From the NCBI RefSeq assembly GCF_000022265.1, contig NC_011979.1, positions 3,300,001 to 3,332,000 on the forward strand: DNA of 32,000 nucleotides. Reading direction: 5' to 3'. The stretch comes from Geotalea daltonii FRC-32. Lineage in GTDB: Bacteria; Desulfobacterota; Desulfuromonadia; Geobacterales; Geobacteraceae. Below are positions 418 to 27,226 of the stretch, in pieces. The translations under genes were made by a program, and so were the position numbers. Every line of letters starts with the position of its first letter. Positions within the stretch are counted from its first letter, which is position 1. The notes below the pieces were generated by a model that worked only from the letters and a program-made list of their open reading frames with translations, searched no databases and had not been told where the DNA came from.

Positions 418-597
418 TAGTTTCCATCCGGAAACTCCGGATGAGAAACTAGTGGTTTCCGATTCGGAAAGAGGGGATTTTTTGTTCTGGCAAGGAAATC
501 AAGGGCTTGCGCGGAGACGTACATCGGTACGTCGCACAAGTAAGCCCGCAGATTGACGCCGCCAGGGCAGAAAAGAACCCTTTCCGGATGGAAACTA
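418..597 (+). ncRNA. Candidate structured RNA / structured repeat, copy 1 (family unknown)
   Basis: A perfect 17-bp closing helix (418-434 with 581-597). A 13-bp inner helix (478-490 with 562-574, 3 G-U). Apical hairpins 503-508/542-547 and 516-522/527-533. Shares sequence blocks and compensated helices with 9952-10098. G-U pairs only work on the + strand. Confidence 0.45.
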
Positions 598-2909: not shown

Positions 2910-4058
2910 CTACAAGTCGGATTGGGGTTTGGCCTGAAGAACTGGCAGGTAAAGAACCCTGCCGATGGAAGTGTTGCTCTTCTTGTCGAAGATACGCTTG
3001 CCGGTGGTCGGGGTGCCCTCTCCCCACCAATTACCCATTGCCTTGAAATCATCTGCTCCGGCATTGTATAGGTCGTAATCCCCGTTGCCGACAAAAGTGT
3101 TTCCCCAGGCAACCCCCTTGCCGTCTTCCACCCTGAGACCCACCTTGCTGTTATGGGAAATGTCGTTGGCAGTCACCTTCACCCTGGCTTTGGACAGAGT
3201 AACGCCATAGTCTTTGTTTTTCAGGATCCTGTTTCCTGATAGCGTGCCTTCACCCTGGATCAGGGTAACGCCGCTGCCGTTGACACTGAAGCTGTTGCCA
3301 ATAATCCTGATCCGTCCTCCTTCGACTTTGACCGCCTCCAGGCTGTTGCTGTAGAATGTTGATCCACCCAGATAAAGGGAAGACTGGAAAGCAACTACCG
3401 CCTGTCCATTGCCTGAATAATTAACATCTCGCACATCAGCCTCGGTTTCCGTCAGTTCCAACCCGATATTGCAATTAGTGGCCCCGCCTCCGACGATAAC
3501 AGCCATGCAGTCCTGAATCCTGGCACCTGTGCCACAAGCCGCAAAACCGACATTTTTAAGGGTTATTCTGGAAAAAAGAGCCTCGATCCCAGTTTCAGCA
3601 CCTGTTATCCGGCAGTTTTCCAGGACATTTTTCTTGTCGCTGGACATGATGACGATCCCTTGCCAGTCTCCCTGTGTCGGCTCCGTATATAAAGAGGTGA
3701 AAACTACTGGTTTGTCTGCCCCCCCAAGTGCCTGGATTCTGCCATGTATCAAGAAAACCGGTTTGTCCCCACCAGGTGACTGCCTGAAGAAAACAGTGGT
3801 GCCTGGCTCTAGTGTAAGAGTTGCCTGAGGGGCAAGAATGAGTCCACCTTCGACAAGCACATTGCCCTTCCAGGTTACATCCTCGGCGATGGTCCTGTTT
3901 TTATAGGTCAGGTCGGCAACAGGAGACAGAACCGTACGATCCGGACTATCAGTTTTGTTATCCCGGTCTCCTGCGGTTGCCGGACCGGGATTTCCTGACA
4001 AAGCCAACCCCATGGCGACAGCAGCATAAACGCAGACTTTCTTGAAAATCAGATACAT
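2910..4058 (-). CDS. Secreted right-handed parallel beta-helix repeat protein (NosD/CASH-like)
   Basis: 382 aa. N-terminal signal peptide (MYLIFKKVCVYAAVAMGLALS). Repeated ~22-aa units (xGxxIxxxNCxIxG, GIxL, NxIxxN) typical of pectin-lyase-fold proteins. Confidence 0.65.
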   Translation of the reverse strand: MYLIFKKVCVYAAVAMGLALSGNPGPATAGDRDNKTDSPDRTVLSPVADLTYKNRTIAEDVTWKGNVLVEGGLILAPQATLTLEPGTTVFFRQSPGGDKPVFLIHGRIQALGGADKPVVFTSLYTEPTQGDWQGIVIMSSDKKNVLENCRITGAETGIEALFSRITLKNVGFAACGTGARIQDCMAVIVGGGATNCNIGLELTETEADVRDVNYSGNGQAVVAFQSSLYLGGSTFYSNSLEAVKVEGGRIRIIGNSFSVNGSGVTLIQGEGTLSGNRILKNKDYGVTLSKARVKVTANDISHNSKVGLRVEDGKGVAWGNTFVGNGDYDLYNAGADDFKAMGNWWGEGTPTTGKRIFDKKSNTSIGRVLYLPVLQAKPQSDL

Positions 4059-9925: not shown

Positions 9926-9951
9926 GTTGAATAATCATTTGCCTGGTGTCC

Positions 9952-10098
9952 CGTGCGGTTAGTTCTCTGCAAGAATTTCGAGGGATTTTGGTTCCCGGCA
10001 AGGCGCGGCGACGCAGGCCTAGCAGGGCCTAAGCCGAAAGCCGCAACACAGCCGGGGGCCAAAAGACCCGAAATTATCAAGAAAGAATTAACCGCACG
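9952..10098 (+). ncRNA. Candidate structured RNA / structured repeat, copy 2
   Basis: A 15-bp closing helix (9952-9966 with 10084-10098, one G-U). Helices 9974-9979/10070-10075 and 9982-9984/10067-10069. A 13-bp helix 9986-9998/10052-10064. Sequence blocks GAGGGAUUUUGGUUCCCGGCAAGG, GCGCGGCGACG and AAAAGACCC are shared with copy 1. Confidence 0.45.
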
Positions 10099-10128
10099 TG
10101 ACCACTAGTCTTTCCTGAAGGAGATCCC

Positions 10129-27033: not shown

Positions 27034-27043
27034 TTTCAGGAAA

Positions 27044-27205
27044 TTCCTCGTTAGGAAGAGGCGTTAGCACAAACAGAAGCTACTGCCCAGAAACGTCGAA
27101 AGACGCCAATGCGGTAGACCAGATTCAGTCGGATTAAGGCTTTATCTAAGGTAGCTGGTGGTGGTTCACCTACGTTGTGCTCTGCTAAAACTCAAACCAG
27201 GGGAA
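27044..27205 (+). ncRNA. M-box (ykoK leader) Mg2+-sensing riboswitch aptamer
   Basis: Conserved M-box blocks in the right order: CGUUAGG-AGAGGC, CUGCCCAGAAACGUCGAAAGACGCCAAUG, UUAAGGC, GUAGCUGG, ACGUUGUGCUCUGCUAAAACUC. This closely parallels the B. subtilis mgtE leader as I recall it. Confidence 0.85.
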
Positions 27206-27226
27206 AATGGTGTCCTTTTGCGCATG

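Follow-up and report, generated by a model that had tools for sequence, protein, structure and literature searches.

The window analysed here is a stretch of 32,000 nucleotides of the Geotalea daltonii FRC-32 genome (assembly GCF_000022265.1, contig NC_011979.1, forward strand, positions 3,300,001 to 3,332,000). At its start the tex gene ends at position 311, and a convergent open reading frame (ORF) of 146 aa on the - strand, which encodes a Zn-ribbon protein, has its stop codon at 595-597. The spacer between them contains a 176-bp non-autonomous element in + orientation (copy 1, 420-595), which now lies between the Zn-ribbon stop codon and a hairpin at 340-391. A second, diverged element (copy 2, 9946-10105, + orientation) lies upstream of a gene for an MshEN-domain protein. 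A preliminary description, made from the sequence of the window, had rightly placed the first hairpin after the Tex terminator, with its 3' arm over the Zn-ribbon stop codon at 595-597, and had taken it for an independent small RNA (sRNA) or 3'-end RNA element. The structure is real and the gene call is wrong: in this window the hairpin is ordinary mobile DNA, a MITE (miniature inverted-repeat transposable element), which carries a conserved core of much wider distribution.

The arms at 418-434 and 581-597 are recovered in a repeat search of the window as 17 nt of 100% complementarity, as had been claimed, and this inverted-repeat pattern occurs at two places only in the window, with 0.15 expected. 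The true arm is TAGTTTCCATCCGGAAA; the string printed earlier, TTAGTTTCCATCCGGAAA, has 18 nt and is one base too long. The + strand of 418-597 has a predicted folding energy of -98.1 kcal/mol versus -51 for shuffles (z = -10.3), and the - strand has -76.2 kcal/mol (z = -7.3). The inner helices appear in the predicted fold as first described, at 478-491/561-574, as GG/CC pairs around 474-476/578-580, and at 503-510/540-547 and 516-522/527-533. The 17-bp helix had also been thought to close the rod, and this part does not stand as given: in the minimum-energy fold of 418-597 a local hairpin forms at 418-451 and the rod is closed by 453-470/580-597, and closure by 420-432/583-595 is seen when 420-595 is folded alone. 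Since the 5' arm pairs locally in the first fold and closes the end in the second, the two closures are predicted to be alternatives.

All segments involved lie on the + strand. The left terminal inverted repeat GTTTCCATCCGGAAAC (420-435) and the right one CTTTCCGGATGGAAAC (580-595) are defined by the repeat search and by the alignment of sister copies. An internal inverted copy of the terminal repeat (436-451) forms the local hairpin with 420-435 in the fold and is kept in nearly all sister copies, and a degenerate terminal-repeat-like segment (452-471) is, by repeat search and fold, an alternative partner of the right end. The two terminal repeats are complementary at 15 of 16 positions, or at 17 of 17 when the TA is included, and the "perfect 17-bp helix" is, by this alignment, made of the transposon terminal inverted repeats plus the TA of the target-site duplication. 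The G+C content of copy 1 is 54%.

Copy 1 is a MITE, and every defining feature of MITEs tested here is present in it. It is short (below about 500 bp) and non-coding, it has terminal inverted repeats and it has dispersed copies in unrelated contexts. The ORFs that overlap it are only chance ones of 34-41 aa, and the compensatory changes in its stems, described below, make a coding role of the element incompatible with the data. Its limits are set by the sharp boundaries of similarity, by sister copies and by empty sites. The target-site duplication TATTTA is found at 414-419 and again, identical, at 596-601, where the Zn-ribbon ORF has its TAG stop codon, made up of positions 596-597 and of base 595 of the element. 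When the window is compared by BLAST with loci of other genomes, about 20 matches are obtained, all within 418-597, with 83-91% identity and unrelated flanks, whose hosts are metagenome-assembled genomes (MAGs) of Geobacterales, Syntrophales and Syntrophobacterales; further copies are found in metagenome loci, again with unrelated flanks. These sister copies, called type 1, are 174-187 bp long, have the sharp ends GTKTCCATCCGGAAAC ... TTTCCGGAYGGAAAC and are bounded by perfect TANNTA direct repeats in 11 of about 15 cases. The ends are common to transposase-encoding insertion sequences (IS), namely six elements of 1.66-1.74 kb, none of which lies in the window.

The insertion is seen most directly by comparison with a contig of Geotalea toluenoxydans (L129), which is syntenic with the window from tex past the MshEN-domain gene and whose MshEN protein is 98% identical. 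At site 1 this contig reads ...GATTATTTA|CAGCGG..., with a single TATTTA and no element, where the window has TATTTA[176 bp]TATTTA. The site is also empty in a second relative (L128), which has 95% identity in the Zn-ribbon protein, and in Geotalea sp. SG265 (L126); another candidate empty site (L047) was ruled out, its context 3' of tex being different. The empty target of copy 1, which corresponds to 406-418/593-605, is a small palindrome, GCTGTAA-TTAT-TTACAGC. The Zn-ribbon gene ends with AAA TAA in the empty sites of L128 and L129 and with AAA TAG in the window, the G being the first base of the element, and the protein is the same. A covariance model of the conserved core detects no copy over the whole 21-kb L129 locus. 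Because both syntenic sites are empty in L129 and no core lies anywhere in that locus, the comparison indicates that both copies of the window are recent insertions that postdate the split from the G. toluenoxydans assembly sequenced.

These results bear on the reading of copy 1 as an independent sRNA gene or 3'-end RNA element, by which a discrete + strand transcript of about 150-180 nt, loosely 6S-like, would have a function in the host. The very stable fold, the + strand-specific wobble pairs, the covariation in the family and the intergenic place after the tex terminator all agree with such a gene. The empty syntenic sites of both copies in a close relative already refute it to a large extent, and at its borders copy 1 has a target duplication and terminal repeats of the kind found in transposase-encoding IS. 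Target-site duplications had been named beforehand as evidence against an RNA reading, and TATTTA is found on both sides. In scans of the two copies and the sequence adjoining them no sigma-70-like promoter and no intrinsic terminator is found. Across about 100 copies of the core there is also no synteny, gene association or orientation preference: the ORFs within 3 kb of these copies form no cluster present in more than four loci and include no recurrent protein family, and the orientation towards neighbouring ORFs is random, with 17 (-,-), 16 (+,-), 12 (-,+) and 11 (+,+) arrangements. The proposed likeness to 6S RNA (RF00013) or Desulfotalea-1 is limited to the rod-like shape, the element being mobile and not syntenic, and neither family gives a match even at E <= 10. 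That the family was not recognised agrees with Rfam 15, in which nothing overlaps the element, whether the whole window is searched at the gathering score or both copies and 10 other members are searched at E <= 10. An independent sRNA gene is highly improbable on these grounds.

A likely autonomous partner was found by scanning a metagenome collection with the type-1 terminal repeat (loci L133-L252). The repeat of 16-18 nt bounds six elements of 1.66-1.74 kb (L174, L180, L222, L226, L227 and L236), each of which has one ORF of about 450 aa, 43-71% identical to the others. The L180 ORF scores 472 bits on the NCBIfam model NF033593, "ISNCY family transposase" (cutoff 325), and also matches the Pfam models DDE_Tnp_1 and DUF772; the partner IS transposase is related to IS5/IS1182. 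The L174 element has a perfect TAACTA duplication, and among 64 repeat-bounded metagenome elements a perfect 6-bp duplication is found in 26, which is TANNTA in 25 of them. ISNCY-family IS (NF033593) share with copy 1 the same terminal repeats of 16-18 bp and the same 6-bp TANNTA flanks, whereas copy 1 has no ORF and its interior is unrelated to that of the IS; the partner IS copies give no core match with the covariance model. By its length of 1.66-1.74 kb and its 6-bp duplication the partner IS would fit the ISDol1 group of ISfinder, which comprises elements of 1.6-1.9 kb with 6-7-bp direct repeats.

Copy 1 is very probably a MITE of the ISNCY-type end group whose interior is a separate, older module. 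An ISNCY-type DDE transposase supplied in trans would bind the 16-18-bp terminal repeats GTKTCCATCCGGAAAC and insert the element at TANNTA by a 6-bp staggered cut, the repair of which would yield the TATTTA duplication at 414-419 and 596-601. At site 1 the - strand of the element would probably belong to the 3' untranslated region (UTR) of the Zn-ribbon mRNA; since the + strand of copy 1 lies behind the terminator hairpin of tex, the - strand is presumably the one likeliest to be transcribed there. At site 2 the + strand would probably lie in an intercistronic leader, 23 nt before the start codon of the MshEN gene.

Only about one quarter of the loci picked by the terminal repeat have the core. 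Several unrelated short interiors lie within the same ends and TANNTA duplications (e.g. in L151, L163, L179 and L137), among them a G-rich palindrome of 153 bp and two families, one of 111 bp and one of 155 bp ("GTCATTCTGAG...GAAGAATCTC"). The ISNCY-type ends thus seem to serve as a general vehicle for hairpin cargos. Some type-1 copies have extra DNA nested in the apex of the core, in the hairpin P4 (L212 3422-3679, L202 907-1152, L211 3198-3511 and L190 1641-1889), so the core apex tolerates insertions. The apical insert of L212 resembles the G-rich cargo family. In L076 a type-1 element (2047-2222) ends 34 nt upstream of a molybdenum-cofactor riboswitch (2256-2374; 38 bits, gathering score 36).

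Several bacterial MITEs, such as Chunjie, the Correia elements of Neisseria and Nezha of cyanobacteria, are like copy 1 short, non-coding and intergenic, with terminal repeats, a target duplication and stable RNA hairpins. Chunjie, from the sister species Geotalea (Geobacter) uraniireducens Rf4, is described as 178-235 bp long with folding energies of about -98 to -130 kcal/mol (PMC3184786), and as A+T-rich with 21-bp terminal repeats and 9-bp direct repeats (PMC3184786, PMC6042816). Compared by these published descriptions, copy 1 overlaps Chunjie in size and fold energy and differs from it in its 16-18-bp repeats, its 6-bp TANNTA duplication and its G+C content of 54%. Chunjie is also reported to sit in an operon without disturbing it (PMC10969869), a position that copy 2 has likewise. 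A segment of copy 1, AATCAAGGGCTTG (498-510), fits the consensus WATCAANNNNTTR of an integration host factor (IHF) site, which in our reading recalls the Correia elements; this candidate was dropped, its ATCAA being kept in about half of the type-1 copies. The core-bearing MITE tied to an ISNCY-type IS would be a further member of the MITE class. Classical MITE families are not known beyond one genus or one family, whereas the interior of copy 1 is found in at least six phyla under different ends.

Copy 2 is a MITE-like element of 160 bp that belongs to a second subfamily (type 2), with the ends GTGTCCCGTGCGGTTAG / TTAACCGCACGTGACCAC; the ends of the type-2 subfamily of Desulfobacterota are GTGTCCCGTGCGG.../...CCGCACGTGACAC. 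Its existence as a diverged second copy had been recognised and is confirmed by a score of 77 bits on the core model, and its full extent, about 9943-10108, is wider than the 9952-10098 first given. Over 9943-10108 it has 93% identity with a copy (L052) at another place in G. toluenoxydans JCM 15764. The repeat search gives an inverted repeat at 9948-9966/10084-10102, and the predicted fold is a 170-nt rod of -92.1 kcal/mol (z = -9). The conserved hairpin core is found on the + strand at 9978-10072, by the model and by the fold, with GGG at 9982-9984, P2 at 9986-9999/10051-10064, GGCAAGG at 9997-10003 and AAAAGA at 10061-10066. Site 2, the spacer between a GIY-YIG gene and the MshEN gene, measures 36 nt without the element in L129 versus 203 nt in the window. 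The flanks of copy 2 are TG...TA, and the empty site is GCC-TA-TTTTTT with a single TA, from which the flanks probably represent a degenerate TA duplication. The element sits 23 nt upstream of the MshEN-domain gene, whose ribosome-binding site is intact. A Nitrospiraceae MAG (L032) contains a shortened type-2 copy, 87% identical to copy 2 over 97 nt and below the model threshold, and positions 1006-1080 of L052 are a broken or decayed 5' half-copy of a type-2 element.

The core itself is about 95 nt long and has the layout GGGAUUUU-P2-GGCAAGG-[variable P3/P4]-AACGCNGCC-P2'-AAAAGA-CCC. From its base it consists of a lineage-specific outer stem, a GA bulge, the pairs GGG/CCC, an A/GA internal loop, a 14-bp helix P2 that starts with UUUU/AAAA, the segment GGC-AAGG opposite AACGCN-GCC, and a variable P3/P4 hairpin. 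In copy 1 the core occupies 470-582 on the + strand, as defined by the model match, by covariation and by the family alignment, with P1 (GGG/CCC) at 474-476/578-580, P2 at 478-491/561-574, GGCAAGG at 489-495, GACGCCGCC at 555-563, AAAAGA at 571-576 and the variable P3/P4 at 497-552. The covariance model scores 77.2 bits on the + strand of 9978-10072 versus 8.6 on the - strand, and 62.8 bits on the + strand of 470-582 versus 15.9 on the - strand; no third core copy is found by it in the 32-kb window.

One genome per species was scanned with the pattern GGGATTTT-N6-8-GGCAAGG-N50-80-AAAAGA, which gives at least 120 loci, with about 25 chance matches expected. At least about 100 true members of the family, from at least six phyla, are present among the matches listed and are supported by the covariance model. 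The model-supported hosts are Bacillota (Oscillospiraceae, Flavonifractor, Lachnospiraceae, Schwartzia and other Selenomonadales), Desulfobacterota-type bacteria (Geobacterales, Syntrophus, Syntrophobacteraceae and Desulfovibrio), Alpha-, Beta- and Gammaproteobacteria, Verrucomicrobiota, Planctomycetota and Binatia, and weaker matches are found in Balneolaceae and Bacteroidia. A link of the core to phages was rejected: of four pattern matches in viral contigs none is supported by the covariance model. BLAST of both copies against plasmids gives no match, and the core strings are absent from the supplementary lists of "multicopy nucleotide sequences" in the Geobacter genome papers.

Covariation was examined in 63 non-redundant members (alignment A2) over 19 basal pairs. 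Standard pairs are found in 90% of cells, and 243 cells have changes on both sides versus 74 +/- 8 in shuffled alignments, none of 500 shuffles being as high; when the structure is slid by 1-3 columns, 62% of cells at most are paired. The covariation is strong. The 19 pairs of the 63 members include 951 Watson-Crick pairs, 125 G-U or U-G pairs and 12 A-C or C-A combinations, and this excess of G-U over A-C indicates that the given (+) strand is the folding strand, as had been proposed from the wobble pairs of copy 1. The sequence of P2 is almost wholly different between phyla and its pairing is kept. Within type 1 all positions are about 90% conserved, paired ones at 0.92 and unpaired ones at 0.89, which gives no information on a constraint on pairing.

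Core-bearing copies within individual genomes have sharp boundaries, which differ by lineage. The elements of Candidatus Azophilus have the ends CTAGTGCTCCGTC...GACGGAGCACTAG and lie at TA in CTAG. Those of Oscillospiraceae have the ends GAACCTGTATTCACA...TGTGAATACAGGTTC, with 3-bp TNA direct repeats in four of six copies, and those of Schwartzia have the ends GGAAACGACGAATAAGTC...GACTTATTCGGCGTTTCC, with 4-bp direct repeats (TTAA, TATG, TTAA and TTTA). The Schwartzia ends resemble those of IS5. Positions 4760-4830 of L089 are a broken or decayed 5' half-copy of a Schwartzia-type element. Because the boundaries are sharp and the ends differ by lineage, the core is a module within several unrelated non-autonomous elements with duplications of 2, 3, 4 or 6 bp.

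The family data also bear on a simpler account, in which copy 1 would be an ordinary palindromic MITE with an interior devoid of function. One element would have spread horizontally, and correction of one arm by the other, through template switching or mismatch repair in hairpin intermediates, would mimic covariation. The identity of 83-91% between type-1 copies across orders of Desulfobacterota, which indicates horizontal transfer, fits this account, as do the nearly equal conservation of paired and unpaired type-1 positions (0.92 versus 0.89), the free exchange of interiors within these ends and the lack of gene association and orientation bias. However, arm correction would restore Watson-Crick pairs on both strands and leaves the count of 125 G-U versus 12 A-C unexplained, nor does it account for asymmetric loops that are conserved (AAGG opposite AACGCN; A opposite GA). 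P2 differs almost wholly in sequence between phyla with its pairing kept, and the differing outer ends and duplication lengths speak against a recent spread of one element. A functionless palindrome is for these reasons rather improbable.

A further reading is that of a mobile element that moves as single-stranded DNA. Repetitive extragenic palindromic (REP) sequences and bacterial interspersed mosaic elements (BIMEs), with their REP-associated tyrosine transposases (RAYTs), and the palindrome-associated transposable elements (PATEs) of IS200/IS605 are, like the core, abundant intergenic hairpins in which one folded strand matters. An element of this kind, moved by an HUH transposase by "peel and paste", would agree with the strand-specific hairpin and its conserved irregular loops, the high copy number and the intergenic position. 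REP/BIME and PATEs lack terminal inverted repeats as well as a target duplication, and HUH enzymes move them, whereas the comparison of filled and empty sites gives a 6-bp duplication here, terminal repeats are present, the ends match those of IS with a DDE transposase, and no cluster of TnpA- or RAYT-like ORFs adjoins the copies. Such an origin of copy 1 is hardly credible. Retrons, integron attC sites, K-turns, hairpin ribozymes and rolling-circle single-strand origins were set aside as well, no defining sequence feature of them being recognised, and no reverse transcriptase or integrase being nearby.

For the reading of copy 1 as a MITE with a separate module, the core would be a passenger that is selected at the level of the mobile element and acts as a folded single strand. 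Its action as RNA in read-through transcripts is a tentative proposal, to which we give a little less than an even chance; RNA is somewhat favoured because the wobble (G-U) content of 12% is typical of RNA helices. Action as single-stranded DNA during mobilisation or replication, the second choice, appears unlikely. Several points weigh against this reading as a whole. At sequence level the data would fit an RNA core and a core of single-stranded DNA alike, and the lack of an orientation bias and of a promoter fits uneasily with an RNA made from one strand. The plain MITE model leaves unexplained that an interior with asymmetric loops is conserved across phyla. The segments GGGATTTT, GGCAAGG and AAAAGA made up the search pattern and for that reason do not vary in alignment A2, and in a small sample of 12 copies found by the model alone they are mostly, not strictly, conserved. 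The target duplication of copy 2 is degenerate. No transposase gene is found in the 32-kb window or in the loci of the genome collection, so we infer mobilisation in trans from the common ends and the type of duplication.

A broader proposal, possible though doubtful, is that the core represents a widespread class of structured nucleic acid, most probably RNA, that has yet to be described and that has been captured repeatedly by MITEs because it benefits them. It would be tied to no one transposon, being found with at least four insertion chemistries (2-, 3-, 4- and 6-bp duplications) in at least six phyla. Its irregular loops (A/GA and AAGG/AACGCN) could then bind a conserved host protein, or the core could act in processing, stability or catalysis and in this way make insertion less costly or the copy number higher. 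A comparable group is known from the Breaker laboratory, which reported 250 "mobile/repeat sequence candidates" (MRSC), including MRSC-65-2 (PMC11109978). MRSC-65-2 is described as a covarying long single hairpin with a UYCCGG repeat, which occurs across diverse phyla, reaches dozens of copies in a genome and is sometimes near transposases, and its authors leave open whether it acts as RNA or DNA (PMC11109978). The core family is similar to MRSC-65-2 in being a long covarying hairpin in diverse phyla. UYCCGG is found in only 13 of 67 core-family members, flanks included, so the core is probably a different motif, as judged by UYCCGG as the sole feature compared.

For genome annotation, both hairpins are to be recorded as MITE insertions and not as sRNA genes, and within the Geotalea toluenoxydans lineage the two insertions are polymorphic at strain level. 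Copy 1 changes a stop codon and probably extends a 3' UTR, and copy 2 splits a 36-nt intercistronic spacer. The MITE family is linked to a likely autonomous partner, an ISNCY-type IS with a TANNTA target and a 6-bp duplication, and the same ends are found to carry many interchangeable interiors. The core is absent from Rfam; its conservation, with compensatory changes, extends from Bacillota to Verrucomicrobiota although the transposon ends around it are unrelated. If functional, it would be a case in which a structured RNA or DNA hitch-hikes in different transposons and spreads with them.

An inverted repeat of 21 bp, 90% complementary (340-360/371-391), lies between tex and the Zn-ribbon gene; it is kept in the relatives with an empty site and looks like a bidirectional terminator common to both genes. 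In a metagenome relative from the JGI (L127) the tex/Zn-ribbon spacer, at about 3380-3680, holds another insert, about 200 nt long and not recognised by the core model, and the Zn-ribbon ORF there has only 125 aa. Insertions may recur in this spacer. The sole public contig with an identical Zn-ribbon protein (L001, ENA contig k141_392214) stops within the element, 52 nt beyond the gene, which is consistent with the repeat having broken the assembly. Just past the Zn-ribbon gene a cluster of four tRNA genes is found on the - strand (1113-1496), and an M-box (magnesium) riboswitch lies on the + strand at 27040-27209, with 134 bits versus a gathering score of 44.

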